Assembly (NCBI GenBank): GCA_035559335.1 | Contig: DATMBH010000332.1 | Coordinates: 1-56,111 of the forward strand | DNA length: 56,111 nt | From: Gemmatimonadales bacterium | GTDB lineage: Bacteria > Gemmatimonadota > Gemmatimonadetes > Gemmatimonadales > JACORV01 | Direction of reading: 5' to 3' | Shown here: piece after piece, positions 19,707-53,984 of the stretch | Numbering within the stretch: the stretch's first letter is position 1 | Layout of the letters: every line of letters begins with the position of its first letter | Made by a program: the position numbers and the translations under genes | The notes under the pieces: model-generated | Told to the model about the DNA's origin: nothing | Seen by the model: only the letters and a program-made list of their open reading frames with translations | The model's database searches: none

Positions 19707-19754
19707 GGTGTCCCTTGTGGTGGACACCCCCGGAATCGGCCTGTAACGCGTTGC

Positions 19755-19784
19755 TTGACAGGGCTTGAGGGCCGCGGTCATATT
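19755..19784 (+). promoter_or_regulatory. candidate sigma-70-type promoter ahead of the outer-membrane island
   Basis: Consensus -35 TTGACA, 18-nt spacer, CATATT. It would give a leader of about 200 nt before ATG 19993. Confidence 0.3.
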
Positions 19785-19992
19785 CGCCGGGCCCGATGCC
19801 ATGATTCGGGAAATGTCCTCTCCGGACGACGCCGGCTGCTCACGGGGTCGTCGTGAATCAAGAACGCAGTAGCGTGTTGCGCTGTAGCTGCTGGTCGGTT
19901 GGCCAAGGCGATCCATCGGAAGGAGGTGGCGTGTCGCTGCTGCCTTGTCGGTTCTTCGTGTCGTCTCGAGTACACGCATTTGGAGGCATTCA

Positions 19993-22900
19993 ATGATTCG
20001 TCCGAGTCGCTGGGCCTTGCTCGCCCGCGTCGCGGCGGTGTTTGGCGTTGCCGTGTCGTTCGGCGCCGGCGCCGCGTTGGCGCAGACGGGGGGCAAGATC
20101 GAAGGCACAGTCCGCGATCAGTCCGGCGCGCCGATAGCTGGTGCGCAGGTCTTCGTCGTGGGATCCGCCTTCTCCGCCACCACGAATGATCAGGGCTATT
20201 ACTTCATCAACAACGTCCCGGCCGGCGTGATGTCGGTACGGGCCCAGTTCATCGGCTACCAGCCCAGCGAGGTGCGGAACGTCCGCGTTCTCGCCGGTCA
20301 GACCCACACTGTCGATCACACGCTGGAGCAGCGCGCGATCGAGGTCGAGGGCATCACGGTGCGGGAGCAGCTGAACCCGATCGTGCCGCGCGACCAGGTG
20401 ACGTCCATCGGCCGCGTGGTTGGCGACCTGGTTGACAACCTTCCGGTGGACAACATCGGCACGGTGCTGCGGCTCCAGCCGGGCGTCGTGGACGGTCGCG
20501 ACGGCCTGACGATTCGCGGCGGCCGGCCGGGCGAGTCCATCACGTACATTGACGGCGTGCCGGTCCGCTCGGTGTCGGGCAACACCGGAACCGTTAGCGT
20601 GGGCACCAACGCCATCGAGGAAGCATCGGTGGTGACCGGTGCGATCGGCGCCGAGTTCGGTGACGCTCAGTCGGGCGTGATCTCGCTGGTTACGCGCGCA
20701 GGCGGCTCGTCGTTCAGCGGCAACCTCACGTATTCGACCGACGAAATCAGCGGCGAGACCTACGGCGCGGGAACGCACCGCATCGAGGCCTCCCTCGGTG
20801 GCCCGCTGGCGCGCAACCTGACGTTCTTCCTCTCCGCCACGATCCAGGGCGAGCAGAGCCCGCGCCGCGGCCTCGGCGCCGAGAACGTGCCGATCTATGT
20901 GATGAACGGCATCGACACCACGGTGACGATCGCCCTTTCACCGGGAAGCCCCACGTCGGACTCCCAGGTTGTCGCCCTCCCGGCCTTCACGCGCTATTCG
21001 CAGGGTCAGCGCCGCCCGGATGACTGGAGCGACGACTTCAACTTCGACGCCAAGCTGCGCTACTCCTATGGGACCGGTTCCGCGTTCAGCGTGACCTATC
21101 ACCAGACCCGGTCGCAAGACCTGTTCTGGCGCGGCAACAGTCTCTACAACCCGATGTCGCAGCGTGGCTCCCGCTCCAACAGCAGCGCGCTGATTTTCAA
21201 CTGGAACCAGAACATCGCCCGGTCGGCCGAGCAGGCGCTGACGCTGATGGCGAACTTCTCGATCCAGCATGACGAGTTCGTGTCCGGTCTCGTGGACCAG
21301 ACCTGGTTCAACGATCACCGCACGCCGTTCATGTGGTTCTCGCCGAGCAGCATGCAGTTCGTCTGGGATCTCGACAATTTCCCGATCGACGACCATCTCA
21401 TCCAGAACATCCGGAACAACTACTGCCTGCCGTCGGCGGGCGGCCTGTGCATTCCGGCGCTGGGTCGGAACGACCTGAACGCCTCCGCGCCGTTCCGGAT
21501 CAACCCCTATGGTGTCTCCCCCGGAGCTTCGTTCTTCCCGACCCAGGGTGTTGGCGTGGGCGGCCTGAACCTCAACGAGGAGACGCGCGTTACCGGTTCG
21601 GCGCAGATTGACTGGCAGGCGAATCGCTACAACCGCATCAAGATCGGCGGTGAGTTCGTAAGCGCCGACGCTTCGGTGTTCTTCGCCGGCAACCTGACCA
21701 ACCAGATCTTCATGGATGCGAACCGCTACAGCCCGAGCCGCATGGCCCTGTACGCGCAGGACCGCATCGACCTCGGCGACGTGGTGGTGGACCTCGGTTT
21801 GCGCTACGACCGCCTCGACGCGGGCGTGCTGTATCCGCGGACTCCGGGTCGGGTGTTCAGCGATCCGCTGCGCACCGGAGATCTCAGCCGTGCCCGCACC
21901 GCCGAGGACACGGCGGTAGCGAACCGCTGCGCGGCGCTGCTTGCCGCGGCCGACTCGGCCGGCTGGTCCACCTGCAACATGTTCGAGTCCGCTCCCAGGA
22001 GTGCGTTGTCGCCCAGCATCCGGGTTTCGTTCCCGATCACGGACCGCACGGGCTTCCGGCTCTCCTACGCTCATCAGCCTCAGGCGCCGGATTTCAACCT
22101 GCTGGCTACCGGTGTCAACGCGGATCTTGCGTTCACCAACACCAATGACGTGTTCGGGCGGGACCTGGACTACGGCAAGACGATCCTGTTCGAGTTCGGC
22201 ATCAGGCACGCCTTCAACGACGACCTGGTGCTCGACATCTCAGCCTACAACAAGGACAAGGTCTCGGACATCACCGCGCGCATCCTTCCGATCTACGATC
22301 CGCAGCGGAACGAGGTCCAGAACCTCAACGTGATGACCAACGCCGACTTCGGAAACGTGCGCGGCGTGGACATCAGGCTGGATCGCCGCATCGGCTCGCT
22401 GTTCCAGGGCTCGGTGTCCTACACCTACCAGTCGGCGCGCAGCACGGGTTCGGACCCGTTCGAGTACCTGAACACGTTGTCGCGCCAGATCAGCAACGTC
22501 ACCGGAGATCGGGTTCCTCCGCCGCAGGCGCTGCTGACCACGCGCAACGATCGGACCCACACGATCGCCGGCTCGCTGGCGCTCAACTTCCCGAACGGCT
22601 GGCGCTCCGGAACCCTCGCCGGATCGCTGCTCCAGAACACTGGGATGTTTGCGACCTTCCGGTTCGCGAGCGGTTTGCCTTACACGCGGATCGAGAACGC
22701 CGGCGCTGGATCGAGGGGGCCGGGCAACGGGTTCGGCCTGGTGGCCACCGGGACGGAGACGCTGAACAGCTCCCGGATGCCATGGTTCCGCAACGTGGAC
22801 CTGCGCGTCACGCGCGGGTTCCGCCTTGGGTCGCGTGACCTCACGCTGTTCGCGGACTTCCGCAACCTGTTCAACTGGGAGAACCTCACCGCGATCTTCG

Positions 22901-23250
22901 CCGAGACCGGCGACGTGGTGAACGAGAAGTTTGCCGAGCAGACTATCAGTCCGGTCCGCGTCACTCTTCAGCAGGACGCCGGAAACCTGTGGCAAACCCG
23001 CACGGTCAACGGCGTCACCGAGACCGGCGCGAACCTCAACTGCTCGCAGTGGTTGACTGGCGCCTCGCGGGGCCTGCCGGACTGCATCATGCTGCGGCGC
23101 GCCGAGGCCCGGTTTGGCAACGGGGACGGGTTCTTCTCGGAGGCCGAGCAGGACCGTGCTTTCCGTGAGTGGTTCAACCTGTTCCAGGGCCCACACACAC
23201 TGCGCGGCCCCGGATTCAACATGCGGATCGGGTTCGAGCTCAACTTCTAA
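19993..23250 (+). CDS. TonB-dependent-receptor-like outer-membrane barrel with N-terminal carboxypeptidase-regulatory domain
   Basis: GGAGG RBS. Signal peptide ...GAGAALA|QTGG. CarboxypepD_reg-like GKIEGTVRDQSGAPIAGAQVFVVG...YYFINNVPAGVMSVRAQFIGY. Plug-like LRLQPGVV..GLTIRGGRPGESITYIDGVPV. The C-terminus is ...RIGFELNF, with a terminal aromatic residue. Confidence 0.9.
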   Translation: MIRPSRWALLARVAAVFGVAVSFGAGAALAQTGGKIEGTVRDQSGAPIAGAQVFVVGSAFSATTNDQGYYFINNVPAGVMSVRAQFIGYQPSEVRNVRVLAGQTHTVDHTLEQRAIEVEGITVREQLNPIVPRDQVTSIGRVVGDLVDNLPVDNIGTVLRLQPGVVDGRDGLTIRGGRPGESITYIDGVPVRSVSGNTGTVSVGTNAIEEASVVTGAIGAEFGDAQSGVISLVTRAGGSSFSGNLTYSTDEISGETYGAGTHRIEASLGGPLARNLTFFLSATIQGEQSPRRGLGAENVPIYVMNGIDTTVTIALSPGSPTSDSQVVALPAFTRYSQGQRRPDDWSDDFNFDAKLRYSYGTGSAFSVTYHQTRSQDLFWRGNSLYNPMSQRGSRSNSSALIFNWNQNIARSAEQALTLMANFSIQHDEFVSGLVDQTWFNDHRTPFMWFSPSSMQFVWDLDNFPIDDHLIQNIRNNYCLPSAGGLCIPALGRNDLNASAPFRINPYGVSPGASFFPTQGVGVGGLNLNEETRVTGSAQIDWQANRYNRIKIGGEFVSADASVFFAGNLTNQIFMDANRYSPSRMALYAQDRIDLGDVVVDLGLRYDRLDAGVLYPRTPGRVFSDPLRTGDLSRARTAEDTAVANRCAALLAAADSAGWSTCNMFESAPRSALSPSIRVSFPITDRTGFRLSYAHQPQAPDFNLLATGVNADLAFTNTNDVFGRDLDYGKTILFEFGIRHAFNDDLVLDISAYNKDKVSDITARILPIYDPQRNEVQNLNVMTNADFGNVRGVDIRLDRRIGSLFQGSVSYTYQSARSTGSDPFEYLNTLSRQISNVTGDRVPPPQALLTTRNDRTHTIAGSLALNFPNGWRSGTLAGSLLQNTGMFATFRFASGLPYTRIENAGAGSRGPGNGFGLVATGTETLNSSRMPWFRNVDLRVTRGFRLGSRDLTLFADFRNLFNWENLTAIFAETGDVVNEKFAEQTISPVRVTLQQDAGNLWQTRTVNGVTETGANLNCSQWLTGASRGLPDCIMLRRAEARFGNGDGFFSEAEQDRAFREWFNLFQGPHTLRGPGFNMRIGFELNF

Positions 23251-23262
23251 CGCGTCACTGGT

Positions 23263-23292
23263 GCCGGAGGCGCCTGACCAGGTGCCTCCGGC
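23263..23292 (+). other. GC-rich intercistronic hairpin (no U-tract)
   Basis: gccggaggcgcctg / caggtgcctccggc, 13/14 bp, in the 63-nt gap between the barrel and the 1282-aa gene. Confidence 0.45.
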
Positions 23293-23313
23293 CAAAACGG
23301 TCAAGGAGTTCGC

Positions 23314-26300
23314 ATGGCATCGAAGCTCTTCCGGCGAATGGCTCGGGCGGTGTTCCTGCTCGGCGGCGTGGCCCTGATTGCCGCGTCGTCGGCGGAGGCC
23401 GCGCGGCCAGTGCGGCGGACCACGCGGCCGGCTGCGGCGCGTGGCTTCAACCTGTTCGCTGGCGCGGTGAACGTTCTGATGAACGTGAACCGGGTCCAGT
23501 GCAACGTGAACAACATCGGCGAAAGCTGCGTGGACCCGACCAACAGCCCGGTCGTGGGCGGCGGCTTCTGGCCGAAGGGCAGCCCGAACCAGTACATCTT
23601 CAACTCCGGCCTCCAGGTCGCAGCCATCATCCCTGGTAGCGACCAACCGGGCTTCACGTGGCCGGGGGACACGGTTGGAGCGTTCTTCTTCGACCCCCGC
23701 GGCGACCAGGCGCACGGCGAAGGCCGCACCAACGTGTTCAACGGCCTCTCGGCCGCGGACCTGGCCGAGTGGCCCAGCGCCGCGTATGTCCGGGACACGA
23801 CCCTGTTCAACGCCGCGCTGATCGGGCGGCGCACCGTGTCGCAGCAGGACCTGTGGACCAGGTTCTGGGACGGCAACCCGAACCTTTCGGCCGGCCGCCA
23901 GCACTCGATGGGAATCCTGGTCGAGCAGCGCGCTCTGGCGTGGAACTTCCCCTCGGGCAACCAGGACATCGTGTACTTCCTGTACCGGTTCATCAACATC
24001 ACGGCGCGTGATGCCTCCCGGTACGCGAACCTGGCCAACTACGGCTATACGCAGGCTGATATTAACGAGATCGTCGCGATCGCCAACGAGTGGCAGGACC
24101 GCGCCGAGGCAGCCTACAACGTCCAGATCCCGGACACCGGCTTCGCGTGGACCAACATGTACGCGGCCTTCGCGCAGGACCCGGACGTCGGGCAGGCGGG
24201 GCAGAACTACTCCAATGCGATTCTGCCGTTCAACATCGCCATGGCCTACAAGTCGGACTTTCGCGAGCCGACCTGGCAGTTCCCGCCTGACATCAACGGC
24301 GCCCCGTTCGCGCCGGCCCCGGGCTTCGAGGGCGTGAAGTACCTCGCCAGCCCGAACAACATCGGCATCGCCATGTCGGGCAACACCACCAACGGCGCGC
24401 CGTTCCCGGACGCGGTTGGTGTGCAGCGGCTGTGGCGCAACCTGTCGGGAAACCTGCTTCCAGCCGACGGCACCTGCTCGGTCTCTAACCCGCAGGCTCG
24501 CAGGTTCTGCTTCTGGGCGCAGGTGCCGGCTGACACCCGGTTCTTCGAGTCTTCCGGCCCGTTCAGCCTGGGTCCGGGAGAGTCCGCCGTGATCGTGGTG
24601 GCGTACGTCCACGCCGCGCCGGTGCAGAGCTACCCCGGCATGGGTACCTACAGCCTAACGCCGTTCATCGGCGGCAACATGGTTCCCGGCTTCGCCATCG
24701 AGGGTTCACGTTTGGTGGCGGGCACGGACACGCTGCGGGCGGTGGACCGCGCCGCCGGCTGGATCAACCATAGCGACGTCAACGGCGACGGCACCATCAC
24801 GCAGGATGAAGTGACGACCGTGCCGCGTTCGCTGCTCAACAAGTCGCTGGTGGCGCAGGCCGTGTTCGATGCGCGGTTCCTGCTGCCGTTCGCGCCCGAG
24901 GTGCCGGAGTTCTACCTCGTGGCGGGCGATAACGAGGTGACCATCGCGTGGACCCGTAGCGTCACCGAGACCGTCGGCGATCCGTTCTTCGCGGTGGCCT
25001 CGGATGTGACCAACGCGCTATACGATCCGAACTTCCGCGAGTTCGACGTGGAAGGCTACCGGATCTGGCGCGGCCGGAGCCAGGCGCAGATGGAGATGAT
25101 CGCCTCGTTCGACTACAGCGGCACGACCATCACGGACTACACGGGCCAGTTCTGGACCAGCGACTACGGCAACCAGTGCGCGCCCGAGCTTGGCATCACT
25201 ACAACCTGCCCGGTCGCGTTCAACCCGAACGGCTCGGGTCCAACCTGGGACATCCCGCTTTCGGGTGACATCATTCAGATCCCGCCCGGCGGCAGGGTGC
25301 AGCTGGCTAACGGGACGATCTACCACGTAACGGCCGATACGGTGTCGGGACTCAATGACACCGGCGTGCCGTTCGCGTTCACCGATCGCAGCGTCCGCAA
25401 CGGGTTCCGCTACTTCTACGCGGTCACGGCGGTTGACGTGAACAGCGTTAAGTCGGGCCCCAGCTCGCTCGAGTCGCCGCTGGTCACCAAGACGGTGACG
25501 CCGCGGGCGCCCAGCTCGAACAACCAGCCGGCGGTGTTCATCACCGGCATGTTCGGCGACAACGGCGCCACCCAGCTCGATCCCTCGGCGGAGTTCCCGA
25601 GGATAGACCCGGACAACGGCACGTTCAGCGGCCCGATTCCGCCGGTCAACAACGTTGACTACGGGTTCCTGTCGTTCGTGGCGGAGGCGTTGCCCACCGG
25701 CGACTTCATCGCGCGGATTGACTCGCTGGTCGCCGGCTTTACGGGCGGCATCGGCACCCACCCGCAGCTGTACGTGTCGTTCATCGCGGGCGCCGACACG
25801 TTCCGGACCAGCTTCGACATAAACCCGCCGGACTTCAACGCGCAGCCGACTGTCGTGAATGAGTTCGAGGGCGGTTTGGCGCTGGTGCCGTTCGACGTTC
25901 AGCGTGCTCAGGCCGTGGGCATCTCGGCGGCCTTTGCTCAGTCCTCGCGAATGCCGGTGCTGTTTACCGGACGCACCTCGGCACTCTCGAACACGCCTTC
26001 GGTGACGCTTACCCAGGGACGCTTCGGTATCGGCGGGCAGGCCAGCCGTTACCTGATGCGGTCCCGGTGGTTCGAGGGCAACTCGGAGCCGGCGGACCCG
26101 ACCATCAACTTCAACGCCTCTGCCGCAAACACCGCGGGTCAGCTTACCGGGGTGACGCGGATATGGGCACCGCAGTCGTATCGGCAGCCCACGGCTAACG
26201 TGAACCTGCTGTTCCGCGGCTACGGCTACGCGCTAGCTAGCTGGTATCCGGCCGACTTCGTGGTCACGTGGGGGGCGGGCGGTACCGTTACGGTGCGAGA

Positions 26301-27162
26301 CTCGACCCACCGTGTGAACCTGCCGTTCCGTCGCGATCTCGGCGCCGGCTATGGGTTCCTGAACATGTCCGCTCTGGCGGCGGCTGGAGTAACGGCCGGC
26401 GAACTAGCTGACGGCACGGGTAGCCCGAACATGACGACAGCTAGCTATCACGCGCTGTACGCAATCGCGCCGGTCTGCACCCCGGACTGGTGGGATATCA
26501 CCTGTGCTCCGCTACAGAGCAGCGCAGCAATCCAGCCGCTCGATGTGACCGGCGACGGCGTTGCTGATGGTAACGGCATCGTGTTCGTGATCAACGGCGA
26601 AGCGTGGTGGATGGAGATGAGTTCGCTTCCGGCCGCGGGCACGGTGTGGCGCCTGAGGGCAGTTGGCGGCGCAGGTCTGACGGCCACCTGCACTCCAGCG
26701 CTACCGGCGGGCACTGGTTTCTACAGCACGCCTCCGACCGACTGCTCCAACTACAACTACGTTCCGGCCACCAGCACCCGGACCGGCTACCCACCGGGGC
26801 TGCAGTATGTGATCCGCGTGACTCAGGGCTTCCAGATCGCTTCCAATTCGGGCGACCTGAGCCGGATTCACACGGTACCGGATCCGTACTACGTGACCAA
26901 CCAGCTGGAGATCACGGCGAACACCAAGGTGCTCCGGTTCGTAAACCTGCCGGACCGCGCGGTGATCCGTATCTACAGTACCAGCGGAATCCTGGTGAAC
27001 GTCCTGAATCACAATGATCCGGCGGGCGGCGGTGAGCTGGTGTGGAACCTCCGCAACCGCAACAACCAGTTCGTGGCGAGCGGCGTGTACTTCTATCACG
27101 TCGAGACGCCTGACGGCCGGGAGAAAATCGGCCGGTTCACGGTGGTCAACTTCGCCCAGTAA
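23314..27162 (+). CDS. 1282-aa secreted orphan protein with T9SS-type (Por_Secre_tail / FlgD-Ig-like) C-terminal sorting domain
   Basis: Signal peptide MASKLFRRMARAVFLLGGVALIAASSAEA. Internal FN3-like segment (EFYLVAGDNEVTIAWTR...EGYRIWRGRS...FRYFYAVTAVDVNS). Ca-binding-like DVNGDGTITQDE. The last ~90 aa, VPDPYYVTNQ...AVIRIYSTSGILVNVL...LVWNLRNRNNQFVASGVYFYHVETPDGREKIGRFTVV, match the T9SS CTD pattern. No catalytic motif seen. Confidence 0.85.
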   Translation: MASKLFRRMARAVFLLGGVALIAASSAEAARPVRRTTRPAAARGFNLFAGAVNVLMNVNRVQCNVNNIGESCVDPTNSPVVGGGFWPKGSPNQYIFNSGLQVAAIIPGSDQPGFTWPGDTVGAFFFDPRGDQAHGEGRTNVFNGLSAADLAEWPSAAYVRDTTLFNAALIGRRTVSQQDLWTRFWDGNPNLSAGRQHSMGILVEQRALAWNFPSGNQDIVYFLYRFINITARDASRYANLANYGYTQADINEIVAIANEWQDRAEAAYNVQIPDTGFAWTNMYAAFAQDPDVGQAGQNYSNAILPFNIAMAYKSDFREPTWQFPPDINGAPFAPAPGFEGVKYLASPNNIGIAMSGNTTNGAPFPDAVGVQRLWRNLSGNLLPADGTCSVSNPQARRFCFWAQVPADTRFFESSGPFSLGPGESAVIVVAYVHAAPVQSYPGMGTYSLTPFIGGNMVPGFAIEGSRLVAGTDTLRAVDRAAGWINHSDVNGDGTITQDEVTTVPRSLLNKSLVAQAVFDARFLLPFAPEVPEFYLVAGDNEVTIAWTRSVTETVGDPFFAVASDVTNALYDPNFREFDVEGYRIWRGRSQAQMEMIASFDYSGTTITDYTGQFWTSDYGNQCAPELGITTTCPVAFNPNGSGPTWDIPLSGDIIQIPPGGRVQLANGTIYHVTADTVSGLNDTGVPFAFTDRSVRNGFRYFYAVTAVDVNSVKSGPSSLESPLVTKTVTPRAPSSNNQPAVFITGMFGDNGATQLDPSAEFPRIDPDNGTFSGPIPPVNNVDYGFLSFVAEALPTGDFIARIDSLVAGFTGGIGTHPQLYVSFIAGADTFRTSFDINPPDFNAQPTVVNEFEGGLALVPFDVQRAQAVGISAAFAQSSRMPVLFTGRTSALSNTPSVTLTQGRFGIGGQASRYLMRSRWFEGNSEPADPTINFNASAANTAGQLTGVTRIWAPQSYRQPTANVNLLFRGYGYALASWYPADFVVTWGAGGTVTVRDSTHRVNLPFRRDLGAGYGFLNMSALAAAGVTAGELADGTGSPNMTTASYHALYAIAPVCTPDWWDITCAPLQSSAAIQPLDVTGDGVADGNGIVFVINGEAWWMEMSSLPAAGTVWRLRAVGGAGLTATCTPALPAGTGFYSTPPTDCSNYNYVPATSTRTGYPPGLQYVIRVTQGFQIASNSGDLSRIHTVPDPYYVTNQLEITANTKVLRFVNLPDRAVIRIYSTSGILVNVLNHNDPAGGGELVWNLRNRNNQFVASGVYFYHVETPDGREKIGRFTVVNFAQ

Positions 27163-27169
27163 CTGACCC

Positions 27170-27195
27170 GGGGGCCGGGCTCCGGCCCGGCCCCC
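27170..27195 (+). other. GC-rich intercistronic hairpin (no U-tract)
   Basis: gggggccggg / cccggccccc, a 10-bp stem with a 6-nt loop, immediately before the GGAGG RBS of the PorV-like gene. Confidence 0.45.
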
Positions 27196-27208
27196 ACGGA
27201 GGCCTGAC

Positions 27209-28354
27209 ATGCGCAACCGTTCAGTAATGATCGCCCTCGGCCTGCTGGTGGCCGGAACGAGCGCCGCCCGCGCGCAGGGGGTGATTCGCCAGATCGAGTC
27301 CGACAACACCGCCTACGGCACCACGGCGGCGGAATTCCTGCTGGTGCCCGCCTCGGCACGAGGCGCAGCGCTGGGTGGCGGGTTCGCCGCCATCGTGACC
27401 GACGTCTCGTCGGTGCACTACAACCCCGCCGGACTGGCGCTGATGCCGCGGCCCGGACTGCTGGCCTCGCAGATGAACTACGTGGCCGACACCAGGTATA
27501 GCTGGCTCGCGATCGGCATGCCGTTCAGTGGTGGCTCGAGAGCCATAGGACTCTCGGTCACCAACTTCGGCTTCAGCGACCAGCCGGTGTACACGGTCGA
27601 GGACCCGCAGGGTGAGCTGGGCGAGGTGTACTCGGTCTCCCAGACCGCGCTTGGGTTCACTTACTCGCAGCAGTTCTCGGACCGCTTCTCGGCGGGCATG
27701 ACTTTTAAGTTCATCAACGACCGGCTGGGCGATGTGGTTGGTCGCGCCTTCGCGGTCGACTTCGGTACTAGCTTCCGCGCCTCGGTGGGTGGGAGGCCGA
27801 TCCGGGCGGCGTTCGTGATCCAGAACCTCGGTTCCAGCCTTCGTCACGAGGGCTCGGCGCTCGATGTGCTGGTGAACCGCGAGCCCCCGCTGGATCAGCA
27901 GGACGTCCCGCAGGAGCCGGCGCGGGCGCGGCTAAGCACGAAGGAGTGGTCGCTCCCGGTGATCTTCCGGGTGTCGATGGCATACGACCTGTTCGCCACC
28001 CAGTCGAGCCGGTTCTCCGTGCTGGGCGAGTTCACGCAGCCCAACAACACCGAGCCGGCCGTAAACTTCGCCGGGGAGTACTCCATGAACCTCGGCGGTT
28101 CCGGGTTCCAGCTGGCGGGCCGTCTGGGCTGGACTACGCAGCCTGACAACAACCTGGATCCGGCCGGTCCCAGCAGTCCCAATTACGCGGGATTCGAGTC
28201 CACCGTGAGTGACGGTTCCGACGGCCTGTCGGCCGGCGGCGGGCTGAGGTGGCAACGCGACCCGCGTGGCATCGGCATCTCGTTCGACTATGCCTACCGG
28301 CACCTGGGTGTACTGGGGTCGGTCAACATGATCACTGTCGGGCTGAACTGGTAG
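27209..28354 (+). CDS. porV: PorV/PorQ-family outer-membrane protein
   Basis: Signal peptide ...GTSAARA|QGV. GTTAAEFLLVPASARGAALGGGFAAIVTDVSSVHYNPAGLA is the conserved N-terminal PorV/PorQ signature. The sequence has beta-strand periodicity and ends ...ITVGLNW. Confidence 0.75.
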   Translation: MRNRSVMIALGLLVAGTSAARAQGVIRQIESDNTAYGTTAAEFLLVPASARGAALGGGFAAIVTDVSSVHYNPAGLALMPRPGLLASQMNYVADTRYSWLAIGMPFSGGSRAIGLSVTNFGFSDQPVYTVEDPQGELGEVYSVSQTALGFTYSQQFSDRFSAGMTFKFINDRLGDVVGRAFAVDFGTSFRASVGGRPIRAAFVIQNLGSSLRHEGSALDVLVNREPPLDQQDVPQEPARARLSTKEWSLPVIFRVSMAYDLFATQSSRFSVLGEFTQPNNTEPAVNFAGEYSMNLGGSGFQLAGRLGWTTQPDNNLDPAGPSSPNYAGFESTVSDGSDGLSAGGGLRWQRDPRGIGISFDYAYRHLGVLGSVNMITVGLNW

Positions 28355-28371
28355 CCTGATATCTAAGCGGA

Positions 28372-28399
28372 GCGGGCCAGCCGCCGGCGGCTGGCCCGC
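28372..28399 (+). other. perfect 28-nt GC palindrome between the PorV-like and GWxTD genes
   Basis: gcgggccagccgcc|ggcggctggcccgc, with no U-tract. It ends 5 nt before ATG 28405. Confidence 0.45.
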
Positions 28400-28404
28400 C
28401 ACGA

Positions 28405-29829
28405 ATGAGACGACGTCGTTGGATGGGCTGGATGCTGGGCGCCGTGGCGGCCCTGGCATCGGCGGGGAAGGCGGGGGGTCAGGATGCCCCCCTAACTGTG
28501 GCGACGCTGCGGTTCTACAGCCCGGCTAGCGCCACGACGACAATCGAAGGGGTTTGTGAGCTGAGACCGGGCGAGCTGTTCGCTCACCGAGGTCGCAGCG
28601 GGCGGTACCGGTTCTCGGTCGCGGTGTTGGACAGCGCAGGCCTGGAGCTTCAGCGCGGCGAGTGGTCGCGGGAAGTGCCGGCCACGGTGTTGGCGACGCG
28701 TGGGGCAACTGTGGCGGAGTCATTCCGACTCCCGCCGATGGCGCCCGGACGCTACCGCGTTGTGGTCAGGGTGCAGCCCGACGGCGGCAATCCAATCGAG
28801 CGTGAGGCCGAGGTCAGGGCCTGGGCCCAGCGACCGGCCATCAGCGATTTGCTGGTGGCGACCGCGGTGCGGATGGCCGCGTCGGATTCGGATGCTGCGA
28901 CGGCGGGTGAAGTTCGCCGGGGAAGCATGTTGCTGCGCAGCGCCCCGGTGCCCAGCCTGACGCCGACAGACGCCGTGCTGTACTACTACGCGGAGTTGTA
29001 TCCGCGCGGCGTCGAGACGATGACCGGAGAGCTGCGGGCAGAGGTGATCTCGGGCACGCGTACGATAGTCGCCACGCCGCCGAGGCCCGTGCAGGTCGCG
29101 GCGCAGGGCGGCGTCACGCGAGGCCAGTTGGACCTGACCGGGCTGCCTGAAGGCAACTATGTGCTGCGGCTTCGGGTTCGCTTGGGCGACAGCACCGTTA
29201 CCGCGGAAGCCAGGTTCGCGATGGCTGGTGTGGCGGCGCTCGCTGCCGCAGCTCCGCCACCGAGCCGCAGGGCGGCTGAGGAGTTCTTCGCCGAAGCGGA
29301 CGAAGCGCGGCTCGACTCGCTCCAGGCGCCGATAGTGTACTTGGAGCAGGATCAGGAGCGAGGCGTCTATCAGAACCTGACGCTGGAGGGCAAGCGGCGC
29401 TTTCTGGTGGAGTTCTGGAACCGGCGCGATCCGACGCCGGAAACGCCTGACAACACGGCCCTGGTCGAGTTCTATCGCGCCGTGACGTATGTGAACGAGT
29501 CGTTTCGGGAGGGTGGTGCCGGGCAGGTGCCCGGCTGGCGGACCGACAGAGGGCGCATCTATTTGCGCAACGGCCGCCCCGACGAGGTCCACCGGCGTCC
29601 CGCCGCCTCTCCCCGGCCGTTCGAGGTGTGGAAATTCACGCGGGATAGAAACCGCTACTACGTGTTTGTGGATCAGTCGGGGTTCGGTCACTACGTGTTG
29701 TTGGGTACTAACGACCGGCAGGAAGTGACGCAGCAGGAGTGGGAAAGGGTGCTGGGGCCTGAGAGTGCGCAGGAGGTTTACCGCATCCTTGGGATCGAGA
29801 GCACTCGCCTGAGAGATCGCAATCGGTAG
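28405..29829 (+). CDS. GWxTD domain-containing secreted protein
   Basis: The C-terminal domain carries the eponymous motif (VPGWRTDRGRIYLRNGRPDEV...PFEVWKF...YYVFVDQSGFGHYVL). An N-terminal signal peptide is present. Confidence 0.85.
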   Translation: MRRRRWMGWMLGAVAALASAGKAGGQDAPLTVATLRFYSPASATTTIEGVCELRPGELFAHRGRSGRYRFSVAVLDSAGLELQRGEWSREVPATVLATRGATVAESFRLPPMAPGRYRVVVRVQPDGGNPIEREAEVRAWAQRPAISDLLVATAVRMAASDSDAATAGEVRRGSMLLRSAPVPSLTPTDAVLYYYAELYPRGVETMTGELRAEVISGTRTIVATPPRPVQVAAQGGVTRGQLDLTGLPEGNYVLRLRVRLGDSTVTAEARFAMAGVAALAAAAPPPSRRAAEEFFAEADEARLDSLQAPIVYLEQDQERGVYQNLTLEGKRRFLVEFWNRRDPTPETPDNTALVEFYRAVTYVNESFREGGAGQVPGWRTDRGRIYLRNGRPDEVHRRPAASPRPFEVWKFTRDRNRYYVFVDQSGFGHYVLLGTNDRQEVTQQEWERVLGPESAQEVYRILGIESTRLRDRNR

Positions 29830-29860
29830 GGATCACGCGTTTTACTGAGCGAGGGGGATC

Positions 29861-31561
29861 ATGAAGCGTCATCGTAAGTCTGGTCTGGCCGCGGCCGCAC
29901 TAATCGTGCTTGGGGCCGCCGCGTGCTTCGACGACCCGACGAGCTCGTTGCGGGAAGGGCCGGCTGCGCTGGCACTGAACCGTACTTCGGTTACTGTGCG
30001 GTATGGTGACAGCACCGCGGTCGAGGCAATCCTGCGCGACGCACAGGGCAACCCGCTGTCACCGACTGGGATCACCTGGTCCACGGCAGATCCCACCATC
30101 GCCGTGGTCAACGTAGACGAGGCGCGCCCCATTCCCGGTCAGGCGTACGCCCGCGCATTCGTGCGCGGCGTGTCCGCTATCGGCGGGATCACAACCGTCA
30201 CGGTGACCACTCAGGGGCAGAGCGCCAGCTTCCGGGTGCTGGTGCTGCCAGCCACGTTCACCGGGGCCACCTCGGTGGTCGGCACGGCCGTTGCTGACAC
30301 GATCGTGACCAACACACCCTCCGGTCCGGTGTCGTCGTTCATCACTGCGGGTGAGACGCTTACGGTTCAGGTACCGGCGACCTATGTGTTCGACCCGGCG
30401 GCCTCCGGCGTCTTTTTCGGCCCGAACAGCGCCTACATCATCTCCCGCGACAGTTTCACCATCAAGGCGATGGCGCGCTATCCATACGCGGGCAAGGCAC
30501 GGATCACCAACCTGCGCTTCCGCGGGAACTCCGAAACTGGAGTTGTAGACATCGCCAGTCTCGAAACGGACAGCATTGCCATAGCGAGGGCGAGGTTCCG
30601 GGGCACCGTCGCCGTGGCCGCGAGCGCGTTCGGTCCGAACACACAGATGACTGTGACGGCTCCAGCGGGTGTCAGTTTCAGTTCATCGTCGCAGGTCCGG
30701 CTTGGCTCCACGACTGCCATTCGTCTTTCGCAGAGCGCGACCCAGCTGGTGGTGATATCGGCCACGGCCTACACCGGCACGATCATGGTGACCAATGCGA
30801 CCGTTGGTACCGGGACGATTGACTCGCTTCGCTCGATGGCTAGCTCCACGATCAACGCCTCGTTCTTCCCCGGAACGGTGACTAACGGAGCGGGCAACTA
30901 CCTCGACACGATCGTGGTGCGGTGCAACGGATTGTGCACATTCCGCACGGCAACGACGGCGCCCGGACCTTCGCAGGTAACTGTGAACGGGGCGCAGGCT
31001 TTCTTGGTACAGCGCACCGCCGACAGCATGAAGGTGATCGCTTCGCGGCCCGGAACGGGACCCGTCACCGTGAGCAACGTAATAGTTTCGGGGACGACGA
31101 TCCCATCGCTCAGCACCTCGGGGACAATCACCGTGAGCACCACGCCTGGTGATCCCACCGAGCCGGCGAACAATACTCCGGGTGGCACCACTATCACGCT
31201 GACCGGCACGACATCAGCGAACCCGCTCGTGATATACGGGACGATTGACGACGGTACGGGCGCCGGCGATGTGGATGACTTCTACACGTTCAGCTCGGTA
31301 GCCGGCGACACGGTGGTGATCCAGCTGACGTTCGCGGGCACGGGTGCCGGCGGCGCGACCAACCCGGATATCGACCTGCTGGCGTGCAACGCCGCATGCA
31401 ACGCATTCGTCGGCGGCTTCGGCGGCGCGACTGCGGGCAACCCGGAGAACCTCACGCTCAACTTCCCGCCGCTTGCGGACGGGACGTATCACATCTACGT
31501 GAACGGCTGGGACACAGGTGGATTGACCTACTCGTATCGCCTGTCGGTGTACATACGCTAG
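29861..31561 (+). CDS. lipoprotein with bacterial Ig-like (Big_2) and C-terminal pre-peptidase (PPC)-like domains
   Basis: Lipobox-like LIVLGAAAC. Big_2-like LALNRTSVTVRYGDSTAVEAILRDAQGNPLSPTGITWSTADPTIAVV. PPC-like DVDDFYTFSSVAGDTVVIQL...DIDLL...GTYHIYVNGWD. Confidence 0.75.
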   Translation: MKRHRKSGLAAAALIVLGAAACFDDPTSSLREGPAALALNRTSVTVRYGDSTAVEAILRDAQGNPLSPTGITWSTADPTIAVVNVDEARPIPGQAYARAFVRGVSAIGGITTVTVTTQGQSASFRVLVLPATFTGATSVVGTAVADTIVTNTPSGPVSSFITAGETLTVQVPATYVFDPAASGVFFGPNSAYIISRDSFTIKAMARYPYAGKARITNLRFRGNSETGVVDIASLETDSIAIARARFRGTVAVAASAFGPNTQMTVTAPAGVSFSSSSQVRLGSTTAIRLSQSATQLVVISATAYTGTIMVTNATVGTGTIDSLRSMASSTINASFFPGTVTNGAGNYLDTIVVRCNGLCTFRTATTAPGPSQVTVNGAQAFLVQRTADSMKVIASRPGTGPVTVSNVIVSGTTIPSLSTSGTITVSTTPGDPTEPANNTPGGTTITLTGTTSANPLVIYGTIDDGTGAGDVDDFYTFSSVAGDTVVIQLTFAGTGAGGATNPDIDLLACNAACNAFVGGFGGATAGNPENLTLNFPPLADGTYHIYVNGWDTGGLTYSYRLSVYIR

Positions 31562-31584
31562 AGTAGATCTGACTTGAATGGTGC

Positions 31585-31614
31585 GGCCCCGGGTGTCCCA
31601 GGACACCCGGGGCC
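31585..31614. terminator. bidirectional intrinsic terminator closing the island
   Basis: Perfect 14-nt arms ggccccgggtgtcc / ggacacccggggcc, followed by tttgtttcg. It lies between convergent genes. Confidence 0.75.
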
Positions 31615-35893: not shown

Positions 35894-38800
35894 ATGAGGC
35901 TTGATACGGCGCTCACCCGCGTCCAGCGCGGGCTGGCCGCGCTCGTCCTTGCCGCGATGGCTGTGTTCTTCCTTCCGGGGGAGTCGCTCGGACAGGGAGT
36001 GACCACTGCTGCCGTGCGGGGGACGGTAGTCGATCAGAACGGAGCTCCGATCGTCGGGGCGGCGGTGACGATGGTGAATGCCGCCAGCGGACTGCGGTTC
36101 GCCGGCCAGACGGTGGAGGGAGGAAGGTTCTTCATCGCGAACGTGATCGCGGGAACCTACTCCATCGAAGCACGGGCTGTCGGCTACCGGCCCTCGCGCC
36201 GCAGCGGGCTGGCCGTGAGCTTGGGGCAGGTGGCGGAAGTGGATCTGCGGCTTGAGGGCGCGGCGGTCGAGCTGACCGCAATCGAGGTGCAGGCGGCTCC
36301 CGAGAACGCGCTGCTCTCGCCTGGCAGGACCGGCCAGGTCTCCTACGTTACGGAAGGGCTGATTCGCAGCCTCCCGTCGCTCAACCGCAACTTCACTGAC
36401 TTCATCCAGACCGTGCCCGGCGTGGTCGGAACCTCGATCGGCGGGCAGAACAACCGATTCAACAACATCCAGATCGACGGCGGTGTTAACAATGACCTGT
36501 TCGGCCTTGCGGCCTCCGGCACGCCCGGTGGTCAGGCCAACGCGCGGCCGATCTCGGTCGAGGCGGTGCGCGAGTTCCAGGTGCTGCTAGCGCCGTTCGA
36601 CGTGCGGCAGGGAGGTTTCACCGGCGGTCTCGTCAATGCGATCACCCGGACCGGGACCAACGAGTTCCGGGGCTCGGTGTTCGGATACCATCAGAATGAG
36701 GGGCTGGTTGGAAACGACACTGCAGGGAACCCGGCCGCCGACTTTACGTTGTCGCAGTACGGCTTCACGTTGGGCGGACCGATCCAGCGCGACCGGATCC
36801 ACTTCTTCGGAGTGGTTGATTTGTCCCGTCGCAGCACGCCGTTCGCCGGCATCACGATCGGATCGGACACGACCGGCGGCGCTGACTCGGTCGGCGTCGG
36901 AATCCGCCGTGCAACGGCCGAGCGGGTGGCGCAGATCGCGCGCGACCAGCTCGGGTTCGATCCGGGTGACTTCCGGGCGCCGACGATCAAGAACCCGGAC
37001 ACCAACTTCTTCTTCAAGCTGACTGCGCAGCTGGGCGGCGCGAGCCAGCTGGAACTCTCGTGGAACCGGGTTGACGCCTCGGACTACAACCTGATTCGCG
37101 CTCCGACGGCGACGGGGTTCCGCGACGGTTACCAGTTATCCAACAGCGGCTACAACTTCGAGTCGGTCACCAACACGCTGCGTGCCCGGCTCAACACGCC
37201 GTTCGGGTCGCGGCTCACCAACGAACTCTTGCTGTCCTACACCACGGTGCGCGACCAGCGCGCGCTGCCCAATCGCCGTCCCCTGATCTTCGTCGGCGGC
37301 GACCGCGCCGGAACCAACATCGCGATCGGCGCCGACCGGTTCTCTCACGCTAATCGTCTCGATCAGGACATCGTCGAGATTACTGACAACCTGACGATCA
37401 ACATGGGTCGTCACACGTTGATCCTGGGCACGCACAACGAGCTGTTCGGGTTCTACAACGTGTTCTTCCCGGCCTCGCTCGGCGTGTGGTCGTTCAGGAA
37501 CGCGGACTCGCTGGCCGCCGGCAATCCCAACCGTTATGAGATTGCTCTTCCGGGACCGCAGCGTCCCGACGGCCCGGTCGCGAACTTCGACGTCACGCAG
37601 TATGGCTTGTATGTGATGGACCAGTGGCAGCCCAATCCGCGGCTGACGCTCACGTTCGGCTTGCGCGCCGACTTCCCGAACATGGACGCCCCTGCCTACA
37701 ACATCACGTTGGACACGGCGGTGGACGTGAGCACCAGCCGCCCGCTGGGCGTTCGGACCGACACCGAACCGACGAGCCAGATACTCTGGTCGCCGAGGAT
37801 CGGCTTCAACTATGACGCACGCGGCGACGGGTCGTTTTACATCCGTGGCGGAGTCGGTGTCTTCAGCGGCAGGCCGCCCTACGTGTGGACCTCGAACGCG
37901 TACGCGAACACCGGGCTGGAGCAGGTCAGCCTGATTTGCACTGGCGCCAACGTGCCGGCGTTCACCGCGGACGTGAACGCCCAGCCGACGACCTGCGGTA
38001 CCGGAGCGGTGGCGCCGATTCCCTCGGTCGTTTTCTACGACCCGGAGTTCAGGTTCCCGCAGACCATGCGCGCTACCGTGGGTTTCGACCGGCAGCTGCC
38101 GTGGGGAGTGGTCGGCACGTTCGATGCCGTGTACACGCGCACCTTGAATTCGTACTACATCGAGGACGTGAACCTGAGAGCTGGCGGCCACTCGATGGGT
38201 GAGGGCGGACGCTTGTTGTACGGCACGCTCTCGACCAGCTCCAGCTCGACGACCCCGCGTCGCCGTACCGCGCGGGCCCGTGACGTGCTGCTGCACCGCA
38301 ACGAGAATCAGGACTACTCGATATCGATTACGGGACAGCTCAACAAGCGGTTCTCGAACGGCCTGGAGTTCAACGCCTCCTACACCTGGTCTCGCACCAT
38401 GGACCTGATGTCCATGACATCGAGCATCGCCAGCTCGAACTTCAGGTTCGCCACGCTCGACGGCACGCTGGAGGATCGCAACCTGAGGCGGTCGGCGTTC
38501 GACATTCCGCATCAGGTGAAGGTGAGCGGCACGGCCCAACTCCCATACCGGTTCCAGTTCTCGCTCTACTATGTGGGCCGGTCGGGATCGCCGTACGCCT
38601 ACGTGGTGTCGAACGACGCCAACGGGGACAGCTGGGGAGGCAACGATCTGGTCTACGTCCCGGCGAATGCCTCGGACATCAGCCTCAACAACCCGGCGCA
38701 GTGGCCGCTGCTGGACGCATACATCCAGAGCGAGCCCTGCCTGCGCGAGCAGCGCGGCCGCATCATGGAGCGCAACAGCTGCCGCAACCCGTGGCAGAGC

Positions 38801-39073
38801 TTCGTGAATGCCCGGGTCACGAAGTCCATTCCGACCTTGCGGGGCCACGACCTCGAGCTGCACGCCGACATCTTCAACCTGCTGTCGTTCCTGGGAGTTG
38901 GCGGCAGGGTTCGTGAGACGTCGCAGTTCGAGGGGCAGAACCTGCTCAGCGTGGCGCGGTACAGCACCGGGCTGAGCCGTCCGATCTACAACCTGCAGCT
39001 CCCCACCAGGGAGCGCCTCAGCGTCAACGCTTCGCGCTGGCGGCTGCAGCTGGGTGCGAGGTATTCGTTCTAG
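35894..39073 (+). CDS. Oar-like TonB-dependent receptor with N-terminal carboxypeptidase-regulatory domain
   Basis: Signal peptide ...PGESLG|QGV. AAVRGTVVDQNGAPIVGAAVTMVN...RFFIANVIAGTYSIEARAVGY. GGQNNRFNNIQIDGGVNNDLFGL and FDVRQGGFTGGLVNAITRTGTNEF are typical of Oar-type barrels. It ends ...LGARYSF. Confidence 0.9.
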   Translation: MRLDTALTRVQRGLAALVLAAMAVFFLPGESLGQGVTTAAVRGTVVDQNGAPIVGAAVTMVNAASGLRFAGQTVEGGRFFIANVIAGTYSIEARAVGYRPSRRSGLAVSLGQVAEVDLRLEGAAVELTAIEVQAAPENALLSPGRTGQVSYVTEGLIRSLPSLNRNFTDFIQTVPGVVGTSIGGQNNRFNNIQIDGGVNNDLFGLAASGTPGGQANARPISVEAVREFQVLLAPFDVRQGGFTGGLVNAITRTGTNEFRGSVFGYHQNEGLVGNDTAGNPAADFTLSQYGFTLGGPIQRDRIHFFGVVDLSRRSTPFAGITIGSDTTGGADSVGVGIRRATAERVAQIARDQLGFDPGDFRAPTIKNPDTNFFFKLTAQLGGASQLELSWNRVDASDYNLIRAPTATGFRDGYQLSNSGYNFESVTNTLRARLNTPFGSRLTNELLLSYTTVRDQRALPNRRPLIFVGGDRAGTNIAIGADRFSHANRLDQDIVEITDNLTINMGRHTLILGTHNELFGFYNVFFPASLGVWSFRNADSLAAGNPNRYEIALPGPQRPDGPVANFDVTQYGLYVMDQWQPNPRLTLTFGLRADFPNMDAPAYNITLDTAVDVSTSRPLGVRTDTEPTSQILWSPRIGFNYDARGDGSFYIRGGVGVFSGRPPYVWTSNAYANTGLEQVSLICTGANVPAFTADVNAQPTTCGTGAVAPIPSVVFYDPEFRFPQTMRATVGFDRQLPWGVVGTFDAVYTRTLNSYYIEDVNLRAGGHSMGEGGRLLYGTLSTSSSSTTPRRRTARARDVLLHRNENQDYSISITGQLNKRFSNGLEFNASYTWSRTMDLMSMTSSIASSNFRFATLDGTLEDRNLRRSAFDIPHQVKVSGTAQLPYRFQFSLYYVGRSGSPYAYVVSNDANGDSWGGNDLVYVPANASDISLNNPAQWPLLDAYIQSEPCLREQRGRIMERNSCRNPWQSFVNARVTKSIPTLRGHDLELHADIFNLLSFLGVGGRVRETSQFEGQNLLSVARYSTGLSRPIYNLQLPTRERLSVNASRWRLQLGARYSF

Positions 39074-39093: not shown

Positions 39094-39128
39094 CGAACAG
39101 GGAGCAGGGAAAACCTGCTCCCTGTTCG
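39094..39128. terminator. bidirectional intrinsic terminator
   Basis: Perfect 15-bp stem cgaacagggagcagg / cctgctccctgttcg, loop gaaaa, followed by tttcc. It lies between convergent genes. Confidence 0.8.
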
Positions 39129-41759: not shown

Positions 41760-41811
41760 CCGTATCGTACGCCTCAGTGCCGGCCAAGATAATACCCCGA
41801 ACCCGCGGAAC

Positions 41812-48805: not shown

Positions 48806-48906
48806 GATCAGGGGTCAGGGGTCAGGGGAATGGTCGCGGGAGAGGCTGCGTAGTTATGCGCTATGATCGCATAACCCCGATCCCTGACTCCCGACCTCTG
48901 ACCTCT
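48806..48906. repeat. nested structured element: 3x tcagggg tandem arm, degenerate complementary arm and an apical AT-richer hairpin
   Basis: tcagggg x3 at 48808-48828. A complementary tccctgac/tcccgac/ctctgac arm at about 48881-48903. A perfect 8-bp hairpin, gttatgcg / cgcataac, at 48853-48875. Confidence 0.55.
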
Positions 48907-48918
48907 ACCTTCTCCCTC

Positions 48919-52564: not shown

Positions 52565-52587
52565 TTGCGATCCGAGGAGACTGAGCG

Positions 52588-53852: not shown

Positions 53853-53984
53853 TGGCATCGGCGCCCGTCTCCAGCCCCCATCCCGGGCCCGTCCCCTACT
53901 CCCAGCCCCCCTCTTGCATTGTGCAATACCGCCTTCGTTCCTTATTGTTCGCTTCTGGTGACCGTTCCAGCCGCACCTGCCACT

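Follow-up and report, generated by a model that had tools for sequence, protein, structure and literature searches.

Knowledge about type IX secretion systems (T9SS) rests almost entirely on Bacteroidota, and a contig of a Gemmatimonadales bacterium (DATMBH010000332.1 of assembly GCA_035559335.1; 56,111 nt, hereafter the window) raises the question of what T9SS proteins do outside that phylum. Five genes on its forward strand, here named g1 to g5, encode in this order a TonB-dependent transporter (TBDT)-like outer-membrane protein, a 1282-aa secreted protein ending in a T9SS C-terminal domain (CTD), an outer-membrane barrel of the PorV/PorQ family, a protein with a GWxTD domain and a predicted lipoprotein. 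The original prediction, made from the letters of the DNA, described an outer-membrane island in which a candidate cargo (g2) lies next to its candidate shuttle (g3). Do these genes encode a cargo with its shuttle, a stage of the secretion machinery itself, or a surface assembly with work of its own? We lean, tentatively and with confidence a little short of even, towards the last answer: the five genes may encode a single T9SS-dependent outer-membrane assembly, in which g2 would be exported through SprA, docked by its CTD on g3 and active together with g1 and g5.

A four-gene core is conserved in Gemmatimonadales

The five open reading frames (ORFs) occupy positions 19993-31561 in the same direction and are separated by gaps of 63, 46, 50 and 31 nt, as predicted (Table 1). 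The five proteins were compared by tblastn with 81 fetched loci. In essentially every locus with enough flanking sequence (about 70 loci), the order g1-g2-g3-g4 is kept, with g2 identities of 39-59%, and the upstream gene for an M24 peptidase is usually retained as well. Each genome has one such conserved locus, essentially single-copy and placed among housekeeping genes. The synteny that the original prediction called for is thereby found for the first four genes. In a relative with 36% identity (loci L082/L083) the neighbours are different, and the core is present nevertheless: a TBDT-like gene, a g2-like gene with a passing CTD, a PorV-family gene (141 bits) and a GWxTD gene (84.5 bits). 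Because the core is kept at 36% identity between different flanks, the four genes appear to be functionally coupled rather than members of an inherited neighbourhood, and we regard this locus as the strongest evidence for the coupling of g1 to g4.

The same locus speaks against the simplest alternative, according to which g3 would be a general PorV shuttle, g2 an ordinary abundant cargo whose CTD is cleaved off, and g1, g4 and g5 unrelated neighbours kept together by inheritance. Gaps of 31-63 nt with hairpins at conserved positions do not fit such neighbours either, and we consider this explanation improbable.

The g2 protein had been taken for an orphan. This is refuted by 458 homologues, almost all from Gemmatimonadales. 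Among the 120 homologues listed, identity ranges from 48 to 97%; most of these are about 1200-1380 aa long, and a few are shorter (1112-1115 aa, 84-85% coverage). A species-level genome collection contained 496 relatives, of which the best 80, the basis of our genome scan, are nearly all from metagenome-assembled genomes (MAGs) of Gemmatimonadales. A single-sequence search against 1.84 billion representative proteins gave 655 matches at E≤1e-3, with full-length members down to 35% identity. Judged from these searches, the g2 family is coherent and narrow. The names attached to the homologues, nearly all of which stem from Gemmatimonadales MAGs, assign the window to this order, as does the genome scan, in agreement with the earlier impression that the lineage is not Bacteroidota.

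The CTD of g2 resembles those of PorZ and PorU

The last 90 or so residues of g2 had been proposed to be a T9SS CTD, and as an isolated domain they pass: the last 105 aa score 25.7 bits against Por_Secre_tail (TIGR04183, cut-off 23 bits), compared with 20.1 bits for full-length g2. The distant orthologue in L082 reaches 26.0 bits at full length. All 12 family CTDs tested match Por_Secre_tail (E≤0.01) as well as the PorZ CTD, and six of the 12 also match the PorU CTD. The PorZ and PorU CTDs are likewise the best model matches of the g2 CTD itself, and the best PDB match of its profile is the PorZ C-terminus in 5m11, which is sub-threshold (E 0.05) and meaningful as a rank only. When a hidden Markov model (HMM) of the g2 CTD was run over the window and 1.4 Mb of related loci, it returned g2 family members only, although this HMM is narrow and says little on other cargos.

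The CTD is also the most conserved part of the protein. A comparison of 38 family members gave pairwise identities of 77% for the last 97 residues, 38-60% for the other mature segments and 32% for the region of the signal peptide (aa 1-30). The contrast is repeated in the comparison with the L082 orthologue (64% in the CTD against 36%) and between paralogues of one genome (72% versus 57%). Since the most constrained part of this 140-kDa protein is its CTD, the domain looks like a permanent interaction surface and not a disposable tag. In a protein of 1282 aa, one would hardly expect conservation to be highest in a signal that is cleaved off, which is a further argument against g2 being an ordinary cargo.

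According to published work, PorZ and PorU are the two T9SS components whose CTD is retained, PorZ remaining on PorQ and PorU on PorV. For Porphyromonas, PorZ and PorU have been reported to remain bound to these two barrels (PMC8545088, PMC10947112). Because the g2 CTD is the most conserved segment and resembles those of PorZ and PorU, a permanent dock fits better than a cleaved signal. The picture of a cargo next to its shuttle is therefore right in that a CTD protein adjoins a PorV/PorQ-family barrel, but it is probably too simple, as the conservation of the CTD and its likeness to PorZ and PorU favour a dock.

Additional g2 paralogues occur in three of the related loci: L015 (9968-13810), L043 (9890-13726) and L084 (10001-17328, a tandem pair of 1219 and 1223 aa). 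These solo paralogues keep a PorZ-like CTD and lie among housekeeping genes, without TBDT, PorV-like or GWxTD partners. CTD proteins with no barrel of their own are what one would expect if g3 were a general shuttle, which would likewise constrain the CTD sequence.

The barrel protein g3 belongs to the PorV/PorQ family

The description of the 381-aa g3 as PorV-like is upheld at the level of the family. It scores 140.4 bits (cut-off 90) on the PorV/PorQ family model NF033709, with residues 38-381 aligned to the entire model (positions 1-326 of 326). Neither equivalog model is reached: PorQ (NF033711), the nearer of the two, gives 76.9 bits against a cut-off of 220, and PorV (NF033710) 47.1 bits against 250. 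With the solved PorV of F. johnsoniae (6h3i_F), g3 matches at E 1e-7 as a single sequence and at 1.2e-13 as a family profile, the N-terminal half alone being aligned. By these scores g3 is a member of the PorV/PorQ family and an orthologue of neither PorV nor PorQ. That it passes the broad family model only would also suit a general shuttle.

Published precedents exist for a surface protein with its own barrel, namely PorQ-PorZ and PorU-PorV (PMC8545088, PMC10947112) and type-B CTD cargo with a neighbouring PorP-like protein (PMC9143113). The PorZ-PorQ and PorU-PorV pairs of P. gingivalis resemble g2-g3 in combining a large CTD surface protein with a PorV/PorQ-family barrel, in the presence of SprA and in the CTD, that of g2 scoring best on the PorZ and PorU models. 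They differ in that outside the CTD neither the sequence nor the fold of g2 is found in PorU, which is gingipain-like, or in PorZ with its two beta-propellers, in that g3 fails both equivalog cut-offs, and in that the phylum is another one; moreover, the attachment complex as described contains nothing that corresponds to the obligatory TBDT-like and GWxTD proteins. The second precedent, SprB with its PorP/SprF-like anchor SprF, is similar in that the gene for a surface protein adjoins that for a dedicated anchor barrel (PMC9143113). By contrast, the g2 CTD is of type A (TIGR04183), and g3 belongs to the PorV/PorQ and not the PorP/SprF family.

The window encodes the T9SS translocon

Some 10 kb downstream of the operon, the window also contains a gene for SprA (Sov), the T9SS translocon, which the original prediction had missed. 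In one related locus (L077), sprA starts about 9 kb downstream of g2. As sprA is in the window, the organism has at least the T9SS core pore, and the operon is not a module without a secretion system. In agreement with the earlier note, no PorK/L/M/N-like gene was seen among the ORFs scanned, which comprised most of those of at least 200 aa in the window and several smaller ones. An early census found no T9SS outside Bacteroidetes (PMC4793230), and for Gemmatimonadota the literature searched says no more than that the system 'may be present' (PMC11285876). A direct literature search on T9SS together with Gemmatimonadota returned nothing relevant.

The stop codon of sprA overlaps the ATG of a gene for an M28-family lipoprotein (ATGA). 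This protein is a close homologue of type II glutaminyl cyclases from oral Bacteroidota whose structures have been solved (6qro, E 7e-59; 6qql, E 3e-55), and the signal-peptide cleavage sites of SprA, g1 and g3, judged by eye, would leave an N-terminal Gln. The sprA-overlapping cyclase homologue and the predicted N-terminal Gln residues suggest that the 'Q-rule' of Bacteroidota extends to the phylum of Gemmatimonadales, with the cyclase coupled to sprA.

The proximity of sprA brings in a second alternative: the operon might encode the late-stage or attachment machinery of the Gemmatimonadales T9SS. Then g3 would be the PorV/PorQ barrel, g2 a non-homologous stand-in for PorZ or PorU, g1 a PorF-like protein and g4 a new accessory, and together they would secrete and attach many cargos with no part in uptake. 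We regard this as unlikely, while taking it seriously. The locus is order-wide and essentially single-copy among housekeeping genes, genes for SprA and LptF/G lie nearby, the g2 CTD comes closest to those of PorZ and PorU, and the best equivalog score of g3 is on the PorQ model. In addition, at the sensitivity used, neither the window nor the 1.4 Mb of related loci yielded a canonical PorU or PorZ gene or a further gene of the PorV family; canonical PorU, PorZ and PorQ may, however, be encoded elsewhere in the genome, beyond the window and loci searched. The fold of g2 is a further difficulty for this explanation.

The body of g2 has no PorU-like or PorZ-like fold

Apart from its signal peptide and CTD, g2 consists of an N-terminal beta-supersandwich-like domain, an EF-hand-like loop, a fibronectin type III (FnIII) region and further beta domains, and it has four conserved pairs of cysteines. 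An AlphaFold2 (AF2) model of residues 30-1190 was obtained with a predicted local distance difference test (pLDDT) score of 88.9. In Foldseek, the N-terminal ~450 residues weakly resemble (template modelling score about 0.2, 8% identity) the beta-supersandwich found in GH94 phosphorylases, dextran dextrinase and GH116 enzymes. Weaker matches were to the YidC P1 domain and amine oxidase, and there were FnIII-like matches as well. A sequence search of PDB with g2 gave no match. The conserved cysteines are neighbours in the sequence (63/72, 388/399, 622/632 and 1126/1144); such pairs fit disulfides in an exported protein and argue against a Cys protease.

In Bacteroidota, porU and porV are adjacent genes. 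This adjacency suggested g2 as a PorU-like sortase, a candidate that we rejected: the PorU model (NF033707) gives 11 bits against a cut-off of 420 and matches in the CTD region only, no gingipain or caspase fold was returned by Foldseek, and the cysteines are all paired. Homology to PorZ was rejected as well, the PorZ model (NF052228) scoring 31.4 bits (cut-off 260) within the confines of the CTD and Foldseek showing no beta-propeller. By these comparisons, g2 apart from its CTD belongs to no described family. The absence of a gingipain-like, caspase-like or beta-propeller fold and of an obvious free catalytic Cys counts against the attachment-machinery alternative.

The size and build of g2 recall another kind of T9SS product. 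In Tannerella, the surface-layer proteins TfsA and TfsB are exported by the T9SS, and g2 could likewise be a surface-layer or coat protein, with g3 as its anchor and the other proteins assisting in assembly. A length of ~1280 aa, a beta-rich multidomain organization, the CTD and the tandem paralogues in L084 are all reminiscent of TfsA and TfsB. We nevertheless think it quite improbable: identity of ~50% across the order and many invariant polar residues are unusual for surface-layer proteins, the plugged TBDT would be left without a role, and no surface-layer model matched except via the generic CarboxypepD_reg domain of g1.

The proposed partners g1, g4 and g5

The g1 protein has a signal peptide, a CarboxypepD_reg N-terminal extension (PF13620, 75.2 bits, cut-off 32.3), a plug (PF07715, 30.2 bits, cut-off 23.9) and, towards the C-terminus, a large predicted barrel region, with Phe as the last residue. 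When a profile was built from 32 orthologues, it matched PirA, PfeA, FepA and Cir, transporters of solved structure, with E values of 1e-15 to 1e-13. The barrel itself has no match to the Pfam barrel models PF00593 and PF25183 at E≤0.1, whereas the L082 orthologue has precomputed matches to both. The predicted TonB-type barrel with a plug thus stands as far as the plug and the CarboxypepD_reg domain are concerned, both being above their cut-offs; the barrel is putative, with g1 itself below the Pfam models. A candidate TonB box, IEVEGITV, is located between the extension and the plug and aligns with the equivalent stretch of a second TBDT in the window. To that second TBDT, g1 is related in hhalign with a probability of 99.4%, over aligned columns 19-399 only (N-terminal extension, plug and first strands). 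The second TBDT is of the Oar type (OMP_b-brl_4, 209 bits). Its gene is followed by the strongest hairpin of the window, and in many related loci its homologues come after the operon at a distance of a few kb, showing that the wider neighbourhood is syntenic too.

The domain order of g1 (signal peptide, CarboxypepD_reg, plug and large barrel in ~1000-1100 aa) is that of Oar of Myxococcus xanthus (PMC6434023). One could therefore imagine g1 as a TonB-dependent exporter that moves g2 or g4 independently of SprA, as Oar does for PopC; the Oar-subclass architecture of the extension and plug is in line with this (PMC6434023). However, g2 has a bona fide T9SS CTD, SprA is encoded nearby, and a folded 140-kDa protein is unlikely to pass a 22-strand barrel, which make such export very improbable. 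From the Oar protein of M. xanthus, g1 differs as follows: it belongs to a separate, divergent family whose barrel is below the Pfam models, unlike that of the second TBDT, and no PopC-like substrate is apparent.

A TBDT-like protein next to T9SS genes also has a bearing on the attachment-machinery alternative. The T9SS includes a TBDT-like component, PorF, and in Cytophaga PorV is co-purified with a TBDT (PMC8564354). It has been proposed that PorF is late-acting and possibly imports glycans for anionic lipopolysaccharide (A-LPS) (PMC12704123). PorF (PG0534) and CHU_1606 are comparable to g1 as plugged or TBDT-like barrels linked to PorV and T9SS function (PMC8564354, PMC12704123); for g1 the link is one of analogy and gene neighbourhood. 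Contrary to this alternative, no model of PorF or of another T9SS component matched g1.

The GWxTD assignment of g4 is confirmed, with 85.9 bits on TIGR04514 (cut-off 28) and 41.5 bits on PF20094 (cut-off 26.9), and it agrees with what had been predicted. In the AF2 model (pLDDT 85.5), two tandem immunoglobulin/FnIII-like sandwiches precede an alpha/beta GWxTD domain. The lengths aligned in Foldseek, ~260-380 columns, correspond to the tandem sandwiches, with matches to RbmA and transglutaminase C-terminal barrels. Among the Foldseek matches listed, none was attributable to the GWxTD part, and g4 had no sequence match in PDB. A literature search on GWxTD, TIGR04514 or PF20094 found no papers.

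Of the 'Big2/PPC lipoprotein' that g5 was said to be, the lipoprotein remains. The PPC match is sub-threshold (24.1 bits, gathering cut-off 25.9), and Big_2 is unsupported, with no match at E≤0.1. At the position after g4, about 30 related loci have a gene for a lipoprotein of 125-850 aa; these lipoproteins share a C-x-x-DP(T/L) motif directly after the lipobox and little else. We take this motif to resemble the acidic surface-export signal of Bacteroidota lipoproteins. Hence g5 is conserved in position and fast-evolving in sequence, being barely detectable by tblastn. Since the fifth gene is almost always a lipoprotein gene, though a widely variable one, g5 may be an exposed subunit. A variable lipoprotein, like the solo g2 paralogues, would be unexpected in core secretion machinery.

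With its TBDT carrying a CarboxypepD_reg extension and plug, followed by genes for surface proteins including a variable lipoprotein, the operon resembles the SusC/SusD loci of Bacteroidota. The differences are considerable. No SusD-family match was found in g2-g5, and g1 scores 28 bits on the SusC/RagA model (TIGR04056) against a cut-off of 368, within its first 60 aa only. The main partner is predicted to be anchored by the T9SS and not lipidated, and there is one conserved locus instead of many variable ones.

A proposed T9SS-dependent surface assembly

We return to the reading that we favour, a single T9SS-dependent assembly at the outer membrane. In this model, g2 would cross the inner membrane via Sec and the outer membrane via SprA, with its type-A CTD as the guide. 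The CTD would be kept and would dock g2 permanently on g3, encoded just downstream, in the manner of PorZ on PorQ and PorU on PorV in Porphyromonas. The exposed body of g2, with its carbohydrate-binding-like supersandwich, FnIII region and further beta domains stabilised by disulfides, would then act beside g1 and g5. These three proteins may form a capture-and-transport unit that follows a Sus-like logic with different parts, in which g5 would be the fast-evolving surface lipoprotein; the direction and nature of the transport, like the physical association with g1, g4 and g5, are putative. Of the two functions considered in the original prediction, dedicated secretion or surface display on the one hand and substrate capture with import on the other, either may apply. 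The GWxTD protein g4 would be an obligatory accessory subunit. The literature searched contains no description of a CTD protein and a PorV/PorQ barrel that are obligatorily linked with an Oar-type transporter and with a GWxTD protein.

Several points weigh against this model. We infer both the binding of g2 to g3 and the retention of the CTD, and the structural model of g2, ending at residue 1190, leaves the CTD outside. The supersandwich match is weak, and the g1 barrel is not recognised by the Pfam models. A universal, near single-copy locus beside housekeeping genes resembles core machinery more than a nutrient locus. In view of the g2 paralogues without partners, g3 may have several CTD proteins as clients, like a general shuttle. 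The look-up of PorU, PorZ and PorV-family genes covered the window and the related loci, and that of PorK/L/M/N the window ORFs scanned. Finally, hairpins without a U tract can truly terminate transcription in high-GC bacteria, in which case the genes may be partly independently transcribed.

Conserved hairpins and operon boundaries

As predicted, GC-rich hairpins without a U tract occupy three of the four gaps of the operon (Table 1). Their z-scores are -2.9 to -4.0, and in the whole window there are ~10 distinct perfect hairpins of at least 9 bp. In the ~70 related loci, a stem of at least 10 bp occurs within 80 nt after the stop codons of g1, g2 and g3 in 75%, 50% and 48% of the cases, respectively, against 3% in control windows inside g2; these controls are coding sequence and not other intergenic DNA, so the contrast may partly reflect intergenic hairpins generally. 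The sequences of the hairpins vary between loci and their positions are conserved, which lends support to the idea that they tune expression within the operon. They are probably conserved intra-operon elements that grade transcript abundance or stability, and in the assembly proposed above they would grade expression along the operon after g1, g2 and g3.

Table 1. Features of the g1-g5 operon and its surroundings in the 56,111-nt window
Feature	Position	Strand	Basis and remarks
Small ORF, 154 aa	19242-19706	+	apolipoprotein-like helical repeats
Short hairpin	19707-19728	+	7-bp stem, immediately 3' of the stop of the small ORF; upstream boundary of the operon
Sigma-70-type promoter-like site	19755-19784	+	TTGACA-N18-CATATT, 10/12 consensus matches
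Conserved leader	19920-19996	+	contains invariant AAGGAGGTGGCGTGTC, then 21-codon upstream ORF
Upstream ORF	19931-19996	+	GTG start at 19931; TGA stop overlaps g1 ATG (ATGA)
g1, Oar-subclass TBDT-like outer-membrane protein, 1085 aa	19993-23250	+	Pfam, family profile, hhalign
GC-rich hairpin, g1/g2 gap	23263-23292	+	13-bp stem including one G-U; no U tract
g2, secreted multidomain protein, 1282 aa	23314-27162	+	homologue search, AF2, Foldseek
T9SS type-A CTD of g2, aa 1186-1282	26869-27159	+	TIGR04183; most conserved g2 segment
GC-rich hairpin, g2/g3 gap	27170-27195	+	11-bp perfect stem; no U tract
g3, PorV/PorQ-family outer-membrane barrel, 381 aa, signal peptide	27209-28354	+	NF033709, 6h3i_F
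GC-rich hairpin, g3/g4 gap	28372-28399	+	12-bp perfect stem; no U tract
g4, secreted GWxTD-domain protein, 474 aa	28405-29829	+	TIGR04514, AF2
g5, predicted lipoprotein, 566 aa	29861-31561	+	lipobox ...GAAAC then FDDPTSS; sub-threshold PPC-like C-terminus
Intrinsic terminator	31585-31614	+	13-bp stem, 11 GC pairs, 4-nt loop, T-rich tail; faces convergent response-regulator gene
Second Oar-type TBDT	35894-39073	+	OMP_b-brl_4
Hairpin 3' of second TBDT	39094-39128		14-15 bp stem and T tract
LptG, LptF	39142-42338	-	lipopolysaccharide-export permeases, divergent from sprA
SprA/Sov T9SS translocon, 2030 aa	41812-47904	+	TIGR04189, 551.7 bits (cut-off 200); Pfam SprA_N, 38 bits
M28-family lipoprotein	47901-48797	+	6qro, 6qql
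ComEA	48856-49593		
PilB, PilT, PilC	49677-53787	+	type IV pilus set
PAS histidine kinase	53919-55664		

Upstream of the operon, a small ORF lies between the M24 peptidase gene and the operon promoter, and its 3' part shows coding-like conservation in an alignment with several relatives. The short hairpin that closes it has an equivalent in related loci, where the palindrome GTGTCCCC...GGGGACAC is aligned. The near-consensus promoter had been predicted and is present. It is not significant by itself (2 sites found versus 1.3 expected), yet both hexamers are retained in five of six close relatives in which the surrounding intergenic DNA has diverged, and in the relatives the site lies just 3' of the hairpin that closes the upstream small gene. 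At the other end, the strong terminator after g5 was also found as described.

The longest ORF of g1 begins at 19945; the ATG at 19993 is preceded by GGAGG and matches the starts of the homologues in the alignment. In the leader, the exact 16-mer is confined to the seven closest loci, and the upstream ORF is likewise limited to the closest clade. Its peptide is poorly conserved, with a frame-shifting indel in one locus. RNAalifold gave only weak, non-covarying pairs for the leader RNA and no covariation support, and a search for riboswitches and other known RNAs in the 200-nt leader and the intergenic gaps gave no Rfam match better than E 0.19.

Beyond the operon and the second TBDT, the genes for the lipopolysaccharide-export permeases LptG and LptF are divergent from sprA. 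The longest LptF ORF overlaps the start of sprA by ~500 nt, and the true LptF start is probably further downstream. The type IV pilus set is preceded by ComEA and followed by a PAS histidine kinase.

Implications for Gemmatimonadales and the T9SS

In the window, SprA is encoded together with a PorV/PorQ-family barrel, a CTD protein and a glutaminyl cyclase homologue whose gene is coupled to sprA, all in an abundant and poorly studied soil phylum, and the operon joins four families without an assigned role: the g2 family, the g1 TBDT subfamily, GWxTD proteins and a variable lipoprotein. A bolder proposal, which we hold to be rather unlikely, is that the attachment stage of the T9SS of Gemmatimonadales is built from non-homologous parts, g2 on g3 replacing PorU or PorZ and g1 and g4 being obligatory partners. 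If this were true, it would provide a first function for the GWxTD domain and for the g1 TBDT family, and the back-end of the T9SS would be modular across the Fibrobacteres-Chlorobi-Bacteroidetes (FCB) superphylum. Depending on which explanation is right, the operon would mean one of two things for T9SS biology: TonB-dependent barrels and proteins anchored by the T9SS would work together in a capture system that is not of the Sus type, or the attachment stage of the T9SS could be rebuilt from different proteins.

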